A DNA stretch of 64,000 nt from a virus (IMGVR_UViG_3300037478_000520:32001-96000); one strand, 5' to 3'. Positions 9,143 through 62,575 are shown, numbered from the stretch's first letter. Notes: a model not told the origin generated them from the sequence alone. Numbers and translations: made by a program.

Positions 9143-9547
9143 ATGGTGTGCTGGGAACACGGCCGCCAAGGAACCGGCTACCTCAAGCACAGGCTCGCAA
9201 GCGCCATGTGGCCGATCCCGTGGGACGTGTACTTGCTGAAGTTCCCGCCAGGCTCGCACATTCCAAGGCATCGGGATCTGTCCGTGCTTGGCCGTCACTA
9301 CCGCCTGAACGTGACACTGTGGAATGCGCACCCAAAGCACCCGTTCCAGTCCACAGGCTGGCTGTGGCGGGGATTTGGGCGCCGCGTGGTACTGTTCCGG
9401 CCGGACATTCACGCGCACGCTGTGCGGCGGATTGAGATCGGGACGCGGTACGTGTTGAGCTTTGGGTGGTTGTGCCGTGATCGTGATGGCCGCCAGCCCA
9501 TGGGGTCAGGAAGTTCTGAAGTTGCAGAAGGCTCTCGGCGCCTTTGA
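9143..9547 (+). CDS. 2OG-Fe(II) oxygenase-like protein
   Basis: HxD (RHRD), LFRPD..AHAV, TRYVLSFGW. Confidence 0.75.
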   Translation: MVCWEHGRQGTGYLKHRLASAMWPIPWDVYLLKFPPGSHIPRHRDLSVLGRHYRLNVTLWNAHPKHPFQSTGWLWRGFGRRVVLFRPDIHAHAVRRIEIGTRYVLSFGWLCRDRDGRQPMGSGSSEVAEGSRRL

Positions 9548-9556
9548 AGCCGAGAT
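9521..9556 (+). CRISPR. Solo degenerate CRISPR repeat
   Basis: GTTGCAGAAGGCTCTCGGCGCCTTTGAAGCCGAGAT, close to the array consensus with both helices intact. Confidence 0.85.
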
Positions 9557-10017: not shown

Positions 10018-10560
10018 CAAAGGCGCCGAGGGCCTTGTGCGACGTGCCGTGCTCGCAGTGCCAGAGCTTCCTTGCACCCTTGTCTCAGCTTCAAAGGCGC
10101 TGAGGGCCTTGTGCGACGGTCAGGGAAGTAGTGCGAGAGGTGCGCGTAGCCAAGTCTCAGCTTCAAAGGCGCTGAGGGCCTTGTGCGACGGCCGCCTCGT
10201 CCAGCACGTCCTTGTTCGGAGTTCGGTCTCAGCTTCAAAGGCGCTGAGGGCCTTGTGCGACCGCGAGGAGGCCGCCTGTCGAAGCGCCACAGATGAGGTG
10301 TCTCAGCTTCAAAGGCGCTGAGGGCCTTGTGCGACTCAACCGCCCTGCGGCGAGGGCCGCAAGTACCACCCTCATGTCTCAGCTTCAAAGGCGCTGAGGG
10401 CCTTGTGCGACTCGGCGATCACCTCGGCCATCACGTACCGTCGGTGCTCGCGTCTCAGCTTCAAAGGCGCTGAGGGCCTTGTGCGACTACCCGAGTCCGG
10501 CGCGCGCCACCGCGCTCGCCCCACGTCTCAGCTTCAAAGGCGCTGAGGGCCTTGTGCGAC
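10018..10560 (-). CRISPR. CRISPR array 1 (orphan): 7 full plus 1 truncated repeat, 7 spacers
   Basis: Minus-strand repeat GTCGCACAAGGCCCTCAGCGCCTTTGAAGCTGAGAC (36 nt); spacers 36-40 nt; leader at 10561-10752. Confidence 0.97.
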
Positions 10561-24284: not shown

Positions 24285-24471
24285 AACCCTGCAAAGAGTC
24301 TGAAAAGCCAATCGGTCAAACCGCGATGGACTGTCCGCATTGCGGGGCTAACCCCGCATCCCATCCAGCACCGCGCACAGCATCGCAATCGCGACGATCA
24401 GCGTTGCGAGATCGATAGCGTCGATCATTGTTCTGGCCTGTCTGCCACCCCCGGATGTGGGCGACGTCTGA

Positions 24472-24663
24472 TTCGCGAGAGGTCCGGTGGCGCGAAAACC
24501 CCGGGGACCGCTCGCAAACTGGCTAAGAATGCGGGGATATTAGCGAAATCCGATGGTCGTCAGCCCAAAGCAGCTTCCGTGGTAAACGTCCTGTAGCGCG
24601 TAGCGACAGGCACTCGCAAACCGACTTGCAAGCGCGTGGGATCTTTGACAATCTAGCGGACCT
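24472..24663 (+). promoter_or_regulatory. CRISPR leader 2
   Basis: Shared with leaders 1 and 3; ends GGGATCTTTGACAATCT. Confidence 0.85.
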
Positions 24664-25287
24664 GTCGCACAAGGCCCTCGGCGCCTTTGAAGCCGAGACT
24701 CCTGTGCTCCGGGCGGGGCGACCATTGCGAGGCAGTGTCGCACAAGGCCCTCGGCGCCTTTGAAGCCGAGACTTGTGCTCGAGGGCGCGCAAGGCATCGG
24801 AAAGTCTACCGCGGTCGCACAAGGCCCTCGGCGCCTTTGAAGCCGAGACGTGGGGGCGAGCGCGGTGGCGCGCGCCGGACTCGGGTAGTCGCACAAGGCC
24901 CTCGGCGCCTTTGAAGCCGAGACCGGCTGCAGGACGTGCTGGATTGGCTTGCGAGCCGGGGGGTCGCACAAGGCCCTCGGCGCCTTTGAAGCCGAGACGT
25001 GATCAGCCGCGTAGACCGCCAGCAGCGTCCACGCGGTCGCACAAGGCCCTCGGCGCCTTTGAAGCCGAGACTCTTGTTCTTGCATCTCTCCAAGAATCGC
25101 CCTATGGGGGTCGCACAAGGCCCTCGGCGCCTTTGAAGCCGAGACCCCAATCCCAGGTCGGAGACGGAACTCGCGCAGTCGTCGCACAAGGCCCTCGGCG
25201 CCTTTGAAGCCGAGACCGTAGGTCTGTGAGCACGTGGTGCAAGCCGATGGAGTATCACAAGGCCCTCGGCGCCTTTGAAGCCGAGAA
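24664..25287 (+). CRISPR. CRISPR array 2 (orphan): 9 repeats, 8 spacers
   Basis: Repeat GTCGCACAAGGCCCTCGGCGCCTTTGAAGCCGAGAC; degenerate last repeat. Confidence 0.98.
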
Positions 25288-46909: not shown

Positions 46910-48125
46910 ATGCGAAAACACCTGAACACAATTTGGCCGCGCGACGTCGCGGTAACCGCGGGTTGGCTGACGATCGCGACCGGGGGCTTTGCCTCGCTTG
47001 TGCTGCCGTTGCTGCAGCTGGGAGGTGCGCTGTGATCTACCGCGAGGACAACACGGAGGGGTACAGCGCTGCGGCGCTGGCTGAGCTGAACCGCCGCTGG
47101 GCCGAGCGCCACGCCGATCTCGACCCCGACGGCCAGGAGGGCAAGGTCGCTGCCGAGCTGCTACTCGCTGAGTTCGACGCCGAGATCGACCGCGGAGGTG
47201 CGCTGTGACCGACACCGAAAACCTGGATCTTTGCACGCACGTACAGTTCAGCCGGGGATCGCGGTCCTACCCTGGCACCGAAGCTGACTGGCAGGCGTAC
47301 CTGTCCCACGGGGGGAAGGGGACGCTGACGCGCTTACTGGCAGCTGAGCACGCGGGCGAGTGTCCAGCGTGTGCGAAGATCGCGGAGTCGGAAGGCGGTG
47401 CGCTGTGACGAGCTACACCGTACGCGGAGAGCGTGTCACACTCGACCGCGAAGGCGTCGCGCGGTCTCTAGCGCACGAATTGCGCGAGGTCGAACGGCTT
47501 AGCGCTGGTCGCTACAACCGCGACGAGCTTGCCGACACGCCAGCCGAACGCTGGGCTTATCTGCTGTGGTCGAGATCCGAGGTTGCGCGCTTCGCGGCGA
47601 TCCTACAGTGCATCGACGATAGCGTCGCACAGCTGCCCAAGACACTCTACCCCGGGGCTCCGCTGTGACGTTCTCGCACTTTTTCGGCGGCATGGCGATG
47701 TGCGGTGTTCACGTTGCGATCTACACGATCGAGGGGTCAAACGACGTCATCGCGCGTCTTGAGACGACCGGACGGAAGCCGATCGCTGCTCCACTGCGAC
47801 TAAGCCAGGAAGAGCTCAAGGCGATCCCTGGGAACAAGACGAAAAGCCTTGCGCATCTGATCAACGCCTGCAATCGGGGGTCGCTGTGATCGCGGACGCC
47901 ACCACGCCCGCCGATCACTCCGCGTTCGTGCGCGAGCTGACAGCGCTCTGCCGCGCGTACGGCGTAACACTCGACCTCCGGGCGGGCGATGGGTGCCCGC
48001 CCGAAGTCGCCTCCGCAGTCCGGGACGCGGATGTCGAAATTGTCCTCAGGCCGATCGACCCTAGCGACCTCGGAGAGTGGACCGAAACGAATTCAGGCGC
48101 GGTGTACTGGCCGATTCGCGAGTGA
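46910..48125 (+). other. Six translationally coupled small ORFs (46910-47035, 47032-47208, 47205-47408, 47405-47668, 47665-47889, 47886-48125)
   Basis: Each junction is a GG(A/C/G)G..CGCTGTGA stop/start overlap. Confidence 0.75.
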
Positions 48126-48207
48126 ATGGCTGGCGACGGGGCTTGGACTTCGGCCGAGCCCCAACGCGAGCGACTTTTTTCACTTCGAACAACAAGGGAA
48201 TACCGCC

Positions 48208-48735
48208 ATGACATCTTACACTGTAATCATAACGTGGGCGCTCGCCGCTAGCGCTGGGACCGGACAGACAACCGTCTGCTTTGAGGCCGCATCGCCCGAC
48301 CCTGCCAAGGCGGCCGTGGAAGCGTGGCGGACCCCCGTCACGCACAGCGGTTCCGCTGTAATCGAGTGGATGCCCGAAACCGCTGTAATCGCGTCCGTGC
48401 GGGCCGTGGCTGACGGGTGCGGCAAACATGCCCGCCCGTCCATCGCCAAGCCGCCCGAGGCGACAATCCTCGAGATTCCCGCTGCGACCTATCCCGCCAC
48501 CGTCCACTACCGCACGCCCGACGGATCGACGGCCCGATGCGACGCGACAATCCTGTGCTCCGGGCGGGGCGACCATTGCGAGGCCGTGATAGACCCTGGC
48601 GCCTGCACATCGCACTGGGGACTTGAGCAATGTCTCGCCAGCACCGTGGCCGTACCCGGCGACGATTCCGCCGATACCCTGGGGTGCGACCCGGGCGCCC
48701 GGCTGCTCGATATCGACTGGACGGACCCGCTGTAA
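48208..48735 (+). CDS. Hypothetical Cys-containing protein; carries the protospacer of array 2 spacer 1
   Basis: AAGGG SD; 48551-48587 matches spacer 24700-24736 at 36/37. Confidence 0.65.
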   Translation: MTSYTVIITWALAASAGTGQTTVCFEAASPDPAKAAVEAWRTPVTHSGSAVIEWMPETAVIASVRAVADGCGKHARPSIAKPPEATILEIPAATYPATVHYRTPDGSTARCDATILCSGRGDHCEAVIDPGACTSHWGLEQCLASTVAVPGDDSADTLGCDPGARLLDIDWTDPL

Positions 48736-50832: not shown

Positions 50833-51705
50833 ATGAACACGAACACCATGAACGCCTGCCAACGATGCAACGCCGAATCCAAAACCGATGTGTGCGGGCG
50901 ATGCGCCGCCTACGTGAGCCAGATCGAGGCCAAGCGCGACCGATACGAGGAACGCGCCGAAAAGGCATCGGACGAGTCCGAATCCCGCATGAACGCGTTC
51001 TCACGCGTCACCGGGAACATCCCACTAGGACAGCCGATCCTAATCGGCCACCACAGCGAAAAGCGCCATCGGAAGGATATCGAACGCGCAAAAAACAACC
51101 TCAAAAAGAGCATGGAAGCGGCCGACAAGGCCAAGCACTACGCCAGCAAGGCCGAATCCTACGGTACGCACGGCATCGCTAGTGACGACCCGGCTGCTGT
51201 CGCTCAGCTGAAGCAAAAGATAGCCGGGCTGGAGTCCAGTCGGGACGAAATGAAGCGCATCAATGCGATTTTCCGCAAGGGCGGATGGGATGCAGTGAGC
51301 GCAGAAATTGGACCGGAGCAATTTCGAAAACTCATCAGCCGAGTCCAATACCAAACCGAACAGCGCCCATTCCCTTCCTACGCGCTAGCCAACCTCGGTT
51401 CGGAGATCCGGCGCGTAAAGCAGCGGATCGCGGAGTTGGAGATCAAGGAAGCCTCGCGCCCCGTAGATCCAAATGATTCGGAGGAAACGATCATGGACGC
51501 CCCCGGCAAGTTCGTTGCGGCGGTTCACCACGACCTTGACCGCGTTGCCTTCGACTTCCCTGGGAAGCCCGCGGAAGCCGTTCGCACTGTCCTCAAGTCC
51601 GCCGGATTCCGCTGGGCGCCATCGCTCGGCATGTGGACTCGCAAGGACACTCCGAACGCGCGCGCAGCAACCCGCCGAATCGCCGAGCAAATCGCAGCAC
51701 TCTAA
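50833..51705 (+). CDS. DUF3560-domain protein
   Basis: IPLGQPILIGHHSEKRHR, IASDDP.A..QL, F.SY.L.NL.SEIRR, FPGKP...VR..LK..GFRWAPS. Confidence 0.9.
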   Translation: MNTNTMNACQRCNAESKTDVCGRCAAYVSQIEAKRDRYEERAEKASDESESRMNAFSRVTGNIPLGQPILIGHHSEKRHRKDIERAKNNLKKSMEAADKAKHYASKAESYGTHGIASDDPAAVAQLKQKIAGLESSRDEMKRINAIFRKGGWDAVSAEIGPEQFRKLISRVQYQTEQRPFPSYALANLGSEIRRVKQRIAELEIKEASRPVDPNDSEETIMDAPGKFVAAVHHDLDRVAFDFPGKPAEAVRTVLKSAGFRWAPSLGMWTRKDTPNARAATRRIAEQIAAL

Positions 51706-55977: not shown

Positions 55978-56655
55978 ATGGATGGACAGATGAGCAAAGT
56001 TGAAATTCTCGCAGCGTGTGACGCAATCCGCACCCGTTTCGCTGGGCGCGCAAAGCTTCGAGATCTCGCCAGCCGCGACGCGATCGCGCGCGCCGAACTG
56101 CAGCGCCGGCTGGGCCTGATCGACGACGCGACATTCGCCGGGCTGGAGCGGGCTGCACTTCGGGTTGCGGCGACCGGTGGAAAATCCGGCTGGTTTGCTT
56201 TCAATCGCCTCGCAGAGATTCGCGAGAATCGCGCGAAGGCGAAGGCTCGCCCGGCAGATCGCAAGCCTGGGCATGTGCAGTCAGTGATCGTCGATCGGCG
56301 GTTTCGCGAGGCCCTAGCCGCTGCTGGGATCCGCGCGACGACTCACGGACACGAAGACGTCTTCGTGTCCGTGCCGGTGGGCGCCGAAGGCGCTATCAGC
56401 GAGACCAGCACAATTTGGCCGAACCAGCTGGGGCTGCCGAATTCGTACAAATACCCGGTCACGTGCAGCACGCACACCTGGCTAATCAGCCCCGCGGTCC
56501 TGCGCCCCGAGGTGCGCGCGCTGAACGCCCGGTGCCCGTCCGGGATCGTCTATCTATCGGCGACCGTGCGCGTCCGGCAAGGCCGCGGAACGTCACTCGT
56601 GGTCGAGACTCTGTCCGCTCGCCAGGCGCTTCGTGCGCTCCGGGTGGCAGCATGA
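55978..56655 (+). CDS. Hypothetical protein
   Basis: First gene after P5. Confidence 0.7.
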   Translation: MDGQMSKVEILAACDAIRTRFAGRAKLRDLASRDAIARAELQRRLGLIDDATFAGLERAALRVAATGGKSGWFAFNRLAEIRENRAKAKARPADRKPGHVQSVIVDRRFREALAAAGIRATTHGHEDVFVSVPVGAEGAISETSTIWPNQLGLPNSYKYPVTCSTHTWLISPAVLRPEVRALNARCPSGIVYLSATVRVRQGRGTSLVVETLSARQALRALRVAA

Positions 56656-57590
56656 GCCTCGCTGCTATCACGCGCGTGGTCGAGCTCGTCGATCGCGGCT
56701 CACCACGCGACGGGCGGCGATTGCGCAGGCTACTATCCGCCGTCGACCGTGCGCCGGTCCCCGTGCGACCACGGCTGTTGGCCTCGATTGCTGTGGTCGA
56801 GCCTGCGCTATCCTCCCTGGTCGCGCAGCACCCCGGACCGCTGTGCCCCGCGTACCCGAGGGTGGACGCGGCAGTCGCCGCGCGGCTGGCGCTGGGCGAG
56901 CGACCCGCAGAGGTTCTCCGCGGCCTCACCCCCCGCGAGGCGCACGAGGCGCTGTCGACCGGGTGTTCGAGCGCTGTCGCGTGGATTCTGCGCGACTGCG
57001 CTGGGACTGAGGGCGTCCGGAGCGTGCCAGTCGCCAGGTGGCTCGTGGCGTGCCTCGCCGACCCTGCGCGCGCCGAAGCGCTCGACCGCACGCGCGAGGA
57101 GCACACTCCCGCGGGCGTGGTCGAGGGGCGGTACACCGATCGTGTCGACGAGATCACGCCGGCGGATCTCGCCAAGGGCGACCGGACCGGGGTGGCCAGC
57201 GCATTCCGCGCTGCGTCCGCGCGAATCTACGCGAAATGGTGCGCGAGCCACGAGCGCGACGAGACTCCGCTTGCCGCCGTTCCGAGCTGGTGGAGGCCAG
57301 TCAGGTGCGCGCGGCTGTGCCTGTCGCGCGCGAGCTTGATCCGAGAAGGTCGCGAGCTGCGGCACTGCGTAGGCACGTACGCACCGCATGTCTCACGCGG
57401 CAAGACCGTGATTGTCTCGATCGCGATTCGCGACGGGGCCGGGCTCGTGCACCGGTCGACGGTGGACATCGATCGCCGCACCGCGGCAGTCGTGTCGCAC
57501 CGAGGGGCCAGTAATTGTGAGCCACCGGCATTGAACAACCGCGCTATCGCGGTGCTCGCGCGGCGCTGGAAGGAAAATTGTCATGGATGA
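56652..57590 (+). CDS. PcfJ-like domain protein
   Basis: L.REG.ELRHCVGTY...V..G...IVSI, RSTVDI, HRG.SN. Confidence 0.8.
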   Translation: MSLAAITRVVELVDRGSPRDGRRLRRLLSAVDRAPVPVRPRLLASIAVVEPALSSLVAQHPGPLCPAYPRVDAAVAARLALGERPAEVLRGLTPREAHEALSTGCSSAVAWILRDCAGTEGVRSVPVARWLVACLADPARAEALDRTREEHTPAGVVEGRYTDRVDEITPADLAKGDRTGVASAFRAASARIYAKWCASHERDETPLAAVPSWWRPVRCARLCLSRASLIREGRELRHCVGTYAPHVSRGKTVIVSIAIRDGAGLVHRSTVDIDRRTAAVVSHRGASNCEPPALNNRAIAVLARRWKENCHG

Positions 57591-59488: not shown

Positions 59489-61588
59489 ATGCAAACCATC
59501 GCCTACAAATACCGGATCCTTCGCGTGCTCTCCGACGAGCGGGCTATCATGGACGAGATCCGAGCCGGTCACCGGCTCTACAACGATCTAGTCGCCATCG
59601 AGCGCAAGCGACGGGCCGCGACCGAGGCGTTCTGGGCTGAGCGTGGTGGGTACCAGGATCTTCTGGCCGAGCGTGGGAAGGCCATCGAATTCGCCGAGTC
59701 GATTCCCAAGGGCGATGATCGGCGCGAGGAGAAGCGCGCGGCATGGCGCGCTGTGAACGATCTGCGTAAGCAGATCTGGGAGTGCGAGAAGGACGCCATC
59801 AAAGCGTTCCACGCGAGCGATCCCGTGAAGATCCGCAGGATGGAACGCGCCAAGGAACTCCGTGCTGCTGCGAAGGCGCGCAAGGAAAAGCTAACGGCGA
59901 AAAAGATCGCGGACATTCTTGACGAGGAACCAGATTGCCTGACCGAGCGGGATAAGCTGCGCAAAACGCTTATCCAGAGCTACAAGGATCGCGGCGTCGG
60001 GATCAGTGCGAAAACCGTGGCTGGCAAGCTCGCAGAGGCATTCCCTGGTCCGACGGAACACGTCGAGCAGGAGGCGAAAGCCGCGGCGTACACAGCCTAT
60101 CGCGAACGCGGTGTTACGCCCGGTACGCGCGCGGTGGTTGCGGACGCGCATGAGCGCTCGCTTGAGATGCTCGAGTGGCGAGAGCAACGCTTCAAGCCGT
60201 GGTCCGGCCACGGCGCATTCGGAACGCAAATCCAAGGAGGCGCGACGTACGGCGACCTATGCAGTGGCAGCCACACGTTTGCTCAACTGGAGTGCCTCGA
60301 CCGCGGCAACTACACTCCTGGATCTCGCCGGCATGGCAGTCTGCACAGGCTACGCGTGCGCCTTGGGTCGGACGGTCAGAAGCCCGTCTGGGCGGAATTC
60401 GAAGCGAGCCTACTTCGCAGCGGCCCGCGTACGTCCGCGTCGACATCGGATCCGATCCCACCCGATGCGCGCGTAATGCAAGTGCGCGTGGTGGTCGACC
60501 GAATCGGCGTGCACGACCACTGGTACGTCTGTTTCACGGCTCAGGTTCCGGACGCCGTGCACTTGCGGGATGAGCCGCCGACGAAGGGCGGGACGGTGGC
60601 CATCGACATTGGGTGGCGCAGTTTGGACGGTGGTTTGCGGGTCGGATACTTCCACGACGGGCAAGAGCACGGCCCCATCGACCTGCCAACGATCCGCAAG
60701 CGACTCAAGCCGCACGGGAAGCGAGGCGCCAAGGCGAAGTGGTTCGAAGTGCGCGACGTGTTCGATCACGCGAGTCACATCCAAGGGATCCTGTCTCAGG
60801 AATTCTACTCCGAGGACAAGGATGCGGCCGTGTACGGCGGCGCCTTGCATGACCTAGCGGTCTGGATCGACTCGCGCGGGCGCGATGCTCTCCCCGAGTG
60901 GCTCTCCGAATCTACCGCCGGGATCCGACAGTGGCGTTCGCAAGCTCGGCTCAACGGACTAGTTGAACGATGGCTTCACAACCGTTTCGAGGGCGACGGT
61001 CAAATCGTCGCTCGCATGGATCAGTGGCGCAAAGACTATAGGCATTTGCATGAATGGTGCGCGCGGGAGAGAAACCGCGCCCTGAACGCGCGCGACGAGC
61101 ACTACAGGCAGACCGCGCTACGCCTCGCGCGCGCGTACGAAACGATCGTGATCAACGGCGCCGACCTTGCAACCACGCGCCGCCGCAAACGGAAAGAGAA
61201 GGCCGCCCCCGAGCTGGTCATGGTCGAGGATGCGAAGCGTTCGCAGGCCTTCGACGCCGCGCCGGGGAAGCTCCGGGAAGAGATCGTAAAGGCGGCAAAG
61301 AAGTACGGCCGGACACTGGTCAAATTGCCGTTCGAAACCGAGAGGTGTCACGTTTGCGGGGAGGTGTGTGAATTTGACCGTGCCCGCTATCTCTCACACA
61401 AGTGCGAGCACGAGCCATGCACAGCACAGTGGGACCAGGACGCCAACGCGTGCCTGAATGCCCTTCGCGAGTGGTCCGGTGGCGCGAAAACCCCGGGGAC
61501 CGCTCGCAAACGCGACAAGCCCGCGAAGTCACGTGAGAAAACGACGGGGCGCGGCGACGCAATAGGCGCTGTGAGCGATTCGCTGTAG
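59489..61588 (+). CDS. cas12m: Type V CRISPR effector, Cas12m (V-M/V-U1)-like, probably nuclease-deficient
   Basis: RLGSDG..PVW, TVAIDIGWRS (RuvC-I), QWRSQ.R, R.RAL..RDE.YRQ.A, IVINGADL (RuvC-II E>N), AAPG.LR, CxxC..C...C Zn finger, WDQD.NA (RuvC-III); adjacent 36-nt-repeat array. Confidence 0.88.
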   Translation: MQTIAYKYRILRVLSDERAIMDEIRAGHRLYNDLVAIERKRRAATEAFWAERGGYQDLLAERGKAIEFAESIPKGDDRREEKRAAWRAVNDLRKQIWECEKDAIKAFHASDPVKIRRMERAKELRAAAKARKEKLTAKKIADILDEEPDCLTERDKLRKTLIQSYKDRGVGISAKTVAGKLAEAFPGPTEHVEQEAKAAAYTAYRERGVTPGTRAVVADAHERSLEMLEWREQRFKPWSGHGAFGTQIQGGATYGDLCSGSHTFAQLECLDRGNYTPGSRRHGSLHRLRVRLGSDGQKPVWAEFEASLLRSGPRTSASTSDPIPPDARVMQVRVVVDRIGVHDHWYVCFTAQVPDAVHLRDEPPTKGGTVAIDIGWRSLDGGLRVGYFHDGQEHGPIDLPTIRKRLKPHGKRGAKAKWFEVRDVFDHASHIQGILSQEFYSEDKDAAVYGGALHDLAVWIDSRGRDALPEWLSESTAGIRQWRSQARLNGLVERWLHNRFEGDGQIVARMDQWRKDYRHLHEWCARERNRALNARDEHYRQTALRLARAYETIVINGADLATTRRRKRKEKAAPELVMVEDAKRSQAFDAAPGKLREEIVKAAKKYGRTLVKLPFETERCHVCGEVCEFDRARYLSHKCEHEPCTAQWDQDANACLNALREWSGGAKTPGTARKRDKPAKSREKTTGRGDAIGAVSDSL

Positions 61589-61656
61589 ACCTGGGATCAG
61601 GAGCGCTCGCAAAACGGTTTGCAAGCGCGTGGGATCTTTGACAATCTAGCCGAGCT
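61464..61656 (+). promoter_or_regulatory. CRISPR leader 3, overlapping the cas12 3' end
   Basis: First 48 nt are 47/48 identical to 24472-24519; proximal TTGCAAGCGCGTGGGATCTTTGACAATCTAGC is shared. Confidence 0.85.
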
Positions 61657-62575
61657 GTATCAGAAGGCCCTCGGCGCCTTTGAAGCCGAGACCAGATGGC
61701 GTTGTGCATCTGGTTGTCGAGCCGCCGGGTATCAGAAGGCCCTCGGCGCCTTTGAAGCCGAGACCGCGACTGGCTTCATTCGGTTACTTTTTTCGATACT
61801 CGTATCAGAAGGCCCTCGGCGCCTTTGAAGCCGAGACACGCCCATGTCCGAGCCGCAGCGAAGCGCGTCGCCTCGTATCAGAAGGCCCTCGGCGCCTTTG
61901 AAGCCGAGACAGGGGGACCGCTCACCCGCAAGAGCGCTTTCAGCCGGCGGTATCACAAGGCCCTCGGCGCCTTTGAAGCCGAGACCCGCACGTCCGGATC
62001 GGCGAGCACCGGCGGTACGTGAGTATCAGAAGGCCCTCGGCGCCTTTGAAGCCGAGACTCTTGTTCTTGCATCTCTCCAAGAATCGCCCTATGGGGGTCG
62101 CACAAGGCCCTCGGCGCCTTTGAAGCCGAGACGCGCGCTGGAATGGTGGCGCTGCGCATCGGCGCGATCGTCGCACAAGGCCCTCGGCGCCTTTGAAGCC
62201 GAGACTAACACCCGGGCGCTGTTACCAAACACCCCAAGGCAGGGGTCGCACAAGGCCCTCGGCGCCTTTGAAGCCGAGACCGCGCGGCGCCGAAGCCGAA
62301 GGCGAAGCCACTCGCGCGCGTGTCGCACAAGGCCCTCGGCGCCTTTGAAGCCGAGACACGGGAGTCATCTTCGTGACCGGAACGAATACCCAGTCGCACA
62401 AGGCCCTCGGCGCCTTTGAAGCCGAGACTGTTTGGCGACGGCGCGAACTCCAAGTCGACCATCCTCGGTATCAGAAGGCCCTCGGCGCCTTTGAAGCCGA
62501 GACACTGATCACGACCTACGCGAGGTGGTCGCCGACGTGGTATCACAAGGCCCTCGGCGCCTTTGAAGCTGAGAT
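61657..62575 (+). CRISPR. CRISPR array 3 (cas-adjacent): 13 repeats, 12 spacers
   Basis: Core AAGGCCCTCGGCGCCTTTGAAGCCGAGAC with 5' variants GTATCAG, GTATCAC and GTCGCAC. Confidence 0.98.

Follow-up and report, generated by a model that had tools for sequence, protein, structure and literature searches.

A long-form, phage-encoded Cas12m with an Asp-Asn-Asp RuvC triad that probably silences target DNA without cutting it

The type V-M locus

The DNA analyzed here, referred to below as the window, is a stretch of 64,000 nucleotides of viral origin (IMGVR_UViG_3300037478_000520:32001-96000), which represents bases 32001-96000 of a linear 113,660-bp IMG/VR virus record with an estimated completeness of 82%. 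Genes for the large terminase, portal, prohead protease, tail sheath, tape measure, baseplate and tail fibre lie at 11-45 kb, and the window also contains the subject of this study, a phage-encoded type V-M (Cas12m) effector gene with an adjacent CRISPR array. In its product the glutamate of the RuvC-II motif is replaced by asparagine. From sequence analysis and from analogy with characterized Cas12m proteins we consider, with a probability of about 0.72, that the protein binds and silences target DNA and does not cleave double-stranded DNA. The features of the gene and of the array next to it are as follows.

59489..61588, + strand: cas12m-like effector gene, long form, 699 aa (open reading frame, PADLOC, PDB match, AlphaFold2 fold)
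59528..60178, + strand: predicted REC region, residues 14-230, nine helices, with about 63 aa of the surplus length (DSSP of the model, insert mapping)
60605..60607, + strand: RuvC-I Asp373 (AIDIGWR) (alignment; inside model strand 369-379)
61154..61156, + strand: RuvC-II Asn556 (IVINGADL), AAC codon, Glu replaced (alignments; end residue of model strand 552-556)
61346..61420, + strand: putative TNB zinc finger, C620/C623...C639/C644 (PF07282, E 1.8e-4, under the cut-off; invariant Cys columns)
61433..61441, + strand: RuvC-III D649-Q-D651 (WDQDANA), the triad residue being D651 (alignment)
61589..61656, + strand: leader between cas12m and array 3 (sequence; degenerate terminal repeat at the far end of the array)
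61657..62575, + strand: CRISPR array 3, 13 repeats of 36 nt and 12 spacers of 35-41 nt, beginning 69 nt past the stop codon

The start codon of the open reading frame (ORF) at 59489-61588 is an ATG with AGGA upstream, while the mechanical ORF start is a TTG two codons 5' of it. Residues are numbered from the ATG, and the D651 codon thus occupies 61439-61441. The initial annotation had reported a D-N-D triad at 60605-61441; D373, N556 and D651 were all found in place, and the interval is exactly the span from the first to the last triad codon.

Assignment to Cas12m

As judged by hidden Markov models, a profile search of solved structures and the predicted fold, the 699-aa protein is a Cas12m (type V-M). 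The PADLOC model for Cas12u1 (V-U1, now Cas12m) matched with E 6e-58. The closest solved chains by sequence were the Cas12m 23vw (E 2.4e-36) and GoCas12m (8pm4, E 7e-13), and a family profile built from 118 relatives recovered 23vw with E 3.6e-173 and MmCas12m2 (8hhl) with E 2.3e-97. NCBIfam yielded weak TnpB matches, and Pfam gave just a sub-threshold match to a Cas12f1-like TNB domain.

An AlphaFold2 model computed on the alignment of the relatives had a mean predicted local distance difference test score (pLDDT) of 91.7 and a predicted template modelling score (pTM) of 0.87. When this model was compared with the PDB by Foldseek, the top four matches were all Cas12m, with target-normalised template modelling (TM) scores of 0.67-0.73, the best being GoCas12m 8pm4 (0.72) and MmCas12m2 8hhl (0.71); Cas12f and TnpB scored 0.57 or less. 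The predicted architecture is that of type V-M, a bilobed fold in which WED and a helical REC are combined with a zinc-finger TNB and with a RuvC that contains a large helical insert.

The TNB cysteines were aligned to H549/C552/C569/C572 of MmCas12m2. The second zinc knuckle (61397-61420) reads C-E-H-E-P-C and is of the CX4C type, while most of the aligned relatives have CX2C; the same spacing occurs in the relative P0034 and is absent from P0006. In the REC lobe the clade motif RRKERAKELR (R116/R117/R120) aligns to ERRKAR of MmCas12m2 (R125/R126/R129), an alignment stretch that is not significant alone. In MmCas12m2 an Arg-rich REC pocket, R111/R112/R126, binds the non-target strand.

The RuvC triad

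Several alignments bear on the identity of the RuvC-II residue. In the HMMER pairwise alignments IVINGA lies over IVLEEF of 23vw, which has Glu, and over IVVDDS of GoCas12m (D497). With the family profile and with a profile of the clade only, the N556 column corresponded to D485, the first D of VLVDD in MmCas12m2. As this column holds the E of 23vw, D485 of MmCas12m2 and D497 of GoCas12m, N556 is the RuvC-II residue. In the alignment to the solved chains D373 stands opposite H317 of MmCas12m2 and H322 of GoCas12m, and D651 opposite D579 of MmCas12m2 (the second D of YDQD) and D590 of GoCas12m; in the model D651 opens helix 650-663. The numbering of the solved chains was obtained by counting along the printed alignments and agrees with PMC10442227 and PMC11013384; the D485 and D579 reached in this way are, with H317, the catalytic-site residues published for MmCas12m2 (PMC10442227).

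Catalytically competent Cas12 and TnpB RuvC domains have a D-E-D triad, and here the RuvC-II position is Asn556. Structure prediction and alignment were among the checks that had been proposed; the alignments placed an Asn in the RuvC-II column, and the prediction supported the Cas12m fold. The MmCas12m residues given in the initial annotation, H in RuvC-I and D in RuvC-II, agree with the published ones (PMC10442227).

A sequencing error at N556 was considered and rejected. A change from AAC to GAA or GAG requires two base changes, and both population variants and relatives down to 46% identity keep the Asn, which argues that it is genuine. The triad is retained in four near-identical population variants (0-3 residue differences), and the same gene with 4 nt differences is present on a contig (L063) of another metagenome. 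N556 is invariant in five D-N-D proteins; the relatives P0152, P0153, P0154 and P0160 (the last encoded by locus L064) are 58, 55, 55 and 46% identical to the window protein, and their RuvC-II motif is (I/V)(V/I)NGA(D/N)(L/F). Four of ten Asn are invariant among these five proteins, N556 included, the other three being at positions conserved family-wide.

It could be supposed that the protein is a fully active double-stranded DNA nuclease in which another acid, D559, E580 or D581, has moved to the metal-B position. In RNase H-like folds, shifts in the position of catalytic residues are known. D559, the D of GADL, had been named as the residue that might occupy the catalytic position. This candidate was rejected: since it is N in two of the closest relatives, P0152 and P0153, and belongs to the E-D-F-D-L motif found family-wide, D559 is no replacement, and the proposed refutation gained no support, the residue being a general one of the family and N in two of the five D-N-D proteins. 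A search for clade-specific acids left E580 and D581 as the only clade-wide candidates for a replacement carboxylate. Position 580 carries an acid in 10 of 10 aligned clade members but in just 10% of other Cas12m, and no clade member departs from D at position 581; these two clade-specific acids speak for an active nuclease. In the model, however, both sit in a helix that begins 18 residues past the RuvC-II strand, and we regard such a relocation as very improbable.

Length and the N-terminal region

At 699 aa the protein exceeds the median length of 108 other representatives (603.5 aa) by about 95 aa, in accordance with the initial estimate of roughly 100 aa. Insert mapping assigned the surplus to about 106 aa of inserts. 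It does not form a single N-terminal block: about 63 aa are scattered across REC residues 54-182, and further inserts comprise an 11-aa low-confidence loop in WED (311-321), a basic stretch of 18 aa past RuvC-I (403-420) and 10 aa at 442-451. From residue 666 onward the AlphaFold2 model has a disordered basic tail. The N-terminal region had been described as long, helical and Lys/Arg-rich. Its helical nature is borne out by the model, in which residues 17-228 form nine helices, but it is not simply basic, as it contains 19% D/E along with 21% K/R.

Evolution of the triad

An exhaustive search recovered 2,672 cluster representatives at E <= 1e-3, and triads were read in the best 150 of them. 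DED was found in 110, NED in 8 and NDD in 8, and there were many singletons. Relatives in deposited phages and plasmids are distant only (22-29% identity). In IMG/VR, 60 loci encode relatives, all of them no more than 32% identical in the best aligned segment with the exception of a short C-terminal fragment at 42%.

A tree of 35 sequences was built with IQ-TREE (quick search, LG+G4), supports being those of the Shimodaira-Hasegawa-like approximate likelihood ratio test (SH-aLRT) only. The five D-N-D proteins form a clade (99), which is sister to a D-S-D/D-T-D group (n=3, 96); the resulting clade of 8 (99) is sister to D-R-D, D-R-H and N-R-H proteins (n=3). Together they make up an 11-member long-form clade (99) whose sister is an N-E-D protein (99). 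Throughout the 11 members the RuvC-II residue is never acidic and is N, S/T or R according to subclade. Given this nesting and the N-E-D sister, the tree indicates a single loss of the RuvC-II Glu, at the base of the long-form clade, followed by the fixation of a different residue in each subclade.

A further member of the long-form clade, from an uncultured metagenome-assembled genome (MAG) of Polyangiales, is N-R-H and has zero acidic triad residues. It is a 711-aa protein encoded at L145:4728-6860, and no CRISPR array was found within 4.7 kb upstream or 7.9 kb downstream of its gene. From this locus one may suspect that the clade has myxobacterial hosts and, more tentatively, that its members can be used without an array or with a distant one.

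Similar changes are widespread in the family. On a FastTree tree of 152 representatives, parsimony required the RuvC-II Glu to have been lost 23 times or more and RuvC-I to have changed 28 times or more; 150 of the 152 have D at RuvC-III. P0049, a short protein of 572 aa with the motif LVVNGLDL, is a second and unrelated D-N-D case. The triad clades of Wu et al. 2022, in the form in which they are quoted by Omura et al. 2023 (PMC10442227), list DED, DND and NED for clade 4, and going by that quotation D-N-D in Cas12m is already on record. To call the triad unusual was therefore an overstatement, with DND listed for clade 4, P0049 as a second instance and RuvC-I and RuvC-II eroding repeatedly across the family. 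The initial annotation had also proposed an independent route to inactivation. Independence from the H-D-D lineage is upheld by the tree, but inactivation, which presupposes an ancestor that cut DNA, is not supported as worded, given that the Cas12m proteins tested so far, D-E-D forms included, cut no double-stranded DNA. Because even these do not cut, the replacement of Glu by Asn is better seen as a change permitted by a binding lifestyle than as the inactivating event; it is more likely a secondary, lineage-specific change.

CRISPR arrays and spacers

Besides array 3, the window contains two further arrays and a single repeat.

24664..25287, + strand: CRISPR array 2, 9 repeats of the same repeat family
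10082..10560, - strand: CRISPR array 1, 7 repeats, compensatory stem change CTCAGC...GCTGAG
9521..9556, + strand: single stand-alone repeat, mismatched at 2 positions of the 29-nt core and lying on the other strand from nearby array 1

The repeat comprises two interleaved stems, AAGGC/GCCUU at -29..-25/-17..-13 and CUCGGC/GCCGAG at -23..-18/-8..-3. This register agrees with that of the CRISPR RNAs (crRNAs) of MmCas12m2 (PMC10442227) and PmCas12m (preprint), with the spacer 3' of the repeat. Array 1 (CUCAGC/GCUGAG) and the array of the 46%-identical L064 relative both have compensatory changes in the CUCGGC/GCCGAG stem. The 40 nt 3' of the stand-alone repeat at 9521-9556 match nothing else in the phage.

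On the contig from the other metagenome, an array of 7 repeats (L063:3261-3742) lies beside the same cas12m gene with a spacer set different from that of the window: it contains spacer 3 of array 2, spacers 4 and 5 of array 3 and three spacers absent from the window. This set implies that spacer content turns over or recombines between arrays despite there being no cas1. Within the window, spacer 6 of array 3 is identical to spacer 6 of array 2, and spacer 1 of array 1 equals spacer 3 of array 2 but for one G. Within array 3 the repeat begins with GTATCA(G/C) on either side of a run of five units that have the array-2 type GTCGCAC instead. The shared spacers and the switching of repeat ends (window positions 62059-62428, 25072-25109, 10488-10524 and 24850-24887) are consistent with recombination between arrays. 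Upstream of array 2 (24465-24575) there is a translated match of 37 residues, with 51% identity, to residues 657-693 of the Cas12m tail; the leader of array 2 looks like a duplicated cas12m 3' end together with the array 3 leader.

Spacer 2 of array 1 (10412-10451) and spacer 5 of array 3 (61986-62022) overlap by 21 nt in the same orientation with one mismatch. Two guides were thus acquired at sites 16 nt apart in a single target, or in variants of that target.

Of the 37 positions of spacer 1 of array 2 (24700-24736), the leader-proximal one, 36 match the phage's own sequence at 48551-48587 (+ strand); position 35 of the spacer, at the end distal to the protospacer-adjacent motif (PAM), is the one mismatch. 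The site lies within the ORF 47989-48735 with the 5' flank ...GCGACAA. An enzyme that cuts would tolerate such a match only without a PAM, which counts, as does the existence of N-R-H relatives, against the active nuclease discussed above; for a protein that only binds, the match could be regulatory. It is conceivable, though unlikely, that the phage directs its non-cutting Cas12m against its own genome in addition to rivals. The protein would then be a programmable repressor of ORF 47989-48735, tolerable only because its RuvC cannot cut, and N, S/T or R at RuvC-II would tune the grip on the non-target strand instead of being products of decay.

Exact 26-mers of two spacers gave no protospacer in IMG/VR, and a codon-degenerate pattern of spacer 11 had no match in IMG/VR or the genome collection. 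All spacers were compared with 1.36 Mb of retrieved loci, where the only matches were array-to-array ones in L063. The 5' flanks implied by the first of the overlapping spacers (ATCG) and by the self-match (ACAA) differ, and no PAM can be derived from them.

The entire 113,660-bp record lacks Cas1 (PF01867); cas2 and cas4 were not searched for separately. This absence of adaptation genes and the degenerate triad would fit a decaying, non-functional cas gene that is close to being lost. Such decay is hardly credible, however, with an intact frame of 699 codons, a confident fold with all domains, about 30% of positions invariant across relatives of 46-58% identity, three arrays maintained and the gene recurring in another sample with different spacers. 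The unbroken ORF, the three arrays and this second occurrence with other spacers are signs of an intact system.

In the non-structural arm upstream of cas12m, proteins of the DUF3560 and PcfJ-like types are encoded at 50833-51705 and 56415-57590. Such proteins are usually found on plasmids and conjugative elements.

Probable function of the effector

The long-form V-M effector would bind DNA under the guidance of a crRNA and so silence, but not cut, what it targets, presumably rival mobile elements. By the two-metal mechanism of RuvC and RNase H (PMC10442227), absence of the RuvC-II carboxylate should prevent metal B from being held, so that hydrolysis would be lost or very slow. D373 and D651 may form a one-metal (A) site that clamps the displaced non-target strand in the way H317 and D579 do in MmCas12m2, and the bound complex would block transcription or replication of the target. 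A non-catalytic role retained by the pocket is suggested by the constancy of the triad within subclades and by the near-invariant RuvC-III Asp.

This proposal agrees with the published biochemistry. Eight orthologs, four of them D-E-D and others H-D-D and N-D-D, were found to bind double-stranded DNA in a PAM-dependent manner, and none cleaves it (Bigelyte et al. 2024, PMC11013384); PmCas12m (N-D-D) likewise binds without cutting (PmCas12m preprint). In MmCas12m2, H317 and D579 hold a single Mg2+ (metal A) that contacts the non-target strand, and metal B is absent (PMC10442227). The D485A substitution weakens binding, and conversion of HDD to DED did not restore cleavage (PMC10442227).

Two alternatives ascribe some chemistry to the D-N-D site. 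According to the first, the site is attenuated and acts as a residual nickase or single-strand DNase on the displaced strand, in cis or in trans. This would be in keeping with the conservation of D373 and D651 throughout the D-N-D and D-S/T-D subclades, with the invariance of N556, shared by just three of the other nine Asn, and with the non-target strand phosphate seen in the RuvC pocket of MmCas12m2 with metal A bound (PMC10442227). However, the same clade has D-R-H and N-R-H members, and catalysis is thus no requirement in it, tested D-E-D Cas12m cut no double-stranded DNA (PMC11013384), and restoring DED did not rescue MmCas12m2 (PMC10442227). We consider a nickase unlikely.

The second alternative is that the pocket serves as an RNase for the processing of precursor crRNA (pre-crRNA), as in Cas12c and Cas12j, the D-N-D triad being tuned for RNA. 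Cas12m proteins process their own pre-crRNA in a Mg2+-dependent manner, and the responsible site was left unassigned (PMC10442227, PMC11013384). Nevertheless, MsCas12m D274A still processes pre-crRNA (PMC11013384) and MmCas12m2 D485A does so normally (PMC10442227), and these published mutants argue that processing in Cas12m is independent of RuvC. Moreover, RuvC-II is variously N, S, T or R across members of the clade. From these data a role in RNA processing is improbable.

Several points weigh against a protein that binds and silences without cutting. The subclade conserves the whole triad of D373, N556 and D651, and some chemistry at the site may be under selection, although the invariance of N556 alone is weak evidence, as 30% of positions do not vary among the five D-N-D sequences. 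The carbonyl of Asn can itself ligate Mg2+. No protospacer outside the phage was found in the spacer searches of IMG/VR, the genome collection and the 1.36 Mb of loci. Finally, hydrolysis of DNA by clades 3 and 4 was raised as a speculation by Omura et al. (PMC10442227).

As compact, naturally occurring 'dCas' proteins, Cas12m effectors are platforms for base and epigenome editing, and the question posed by the family is the role of its degenerate RuvC pocket. On a single scaffold, the long-form lineage presents the natural series D-N-D, D-S/T-D, D-R-D, D-R-H and N-R-H, whose members differ in whether RuvC-I and RuvC-III are retained; it could be used to separate metal-dependent strand clamping from catalysis. 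The picture of Cas12m as binders is left unchanged by the lineage described here, which adds to it a phage-borne branch of about 700 aa.

Comparison with known systems

The triad of the window protein is the same as the DND listed for clade 4 (Wu et al. 2022, quoted in PMC10442227). As quoted, this clade is set by a listing of triads, and its DND entry may stand for the long-form clade or for proteins of the P0049 type.

The D-E-D Cas12m proteins, including 23vw and MsCas12m (PMC11013384), have the same domain order, the WDQD and GWR motifs, an adjacent array and no adaptation genes. They keep the RuvC-II Glu and are about 535-600 aa long, whereas the window protein has Asn and 699 aa and is about 25-30% identical to the plasmid-borne examples.

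The best structural matches are the H-D-D proteins MmCas12m2 (8hhl/8hio) and GoCas12m (8pm4), in which the triad is also non-canonical, metal B is lost and the pocket holds the non-target strand. In these, however, the D of RuvC-I has become H and the acid of RuvC-II is kept as D, while in the window protein the D of RuvC-I is kept and the charge of RuvC-II is lost. The two types are found in different parts of the tree.

A similar genomic setting is that of MvCas12m of myxophage MV-1, reported in a preprint of September 2026 (bioRxiv 10.64898/2026.09.14.751636), a phage-encoded Cas12m which, like that of the window, stands beside an array with no cas1/cas2/cas4. MvCas12m is a 610-aa protein with the triad D305-E463-D555 and one array; the window phage has D-N-D, 699 aa and three arrays. 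The myxophage parallel extends to the long-form clade of the window protein, a relative of which occurs in the Polyangiales (Myxococcota) MAG.

More distantly, TldR (PMC10705468), Cas12k and Cas12c resemble the window protein in that RNA-guided DNA binding follows the loss or disuse of RuvC cleavage. TldRs operate without CRISPR, with omega-like guides encoded next to fixed host genes (PMC10705468), whereas the window gene has its array of 13 repeats and two further arrays. Cas12k acts with Tn7-like transposons, and Cas12c retains its RuvC for RNA processing.

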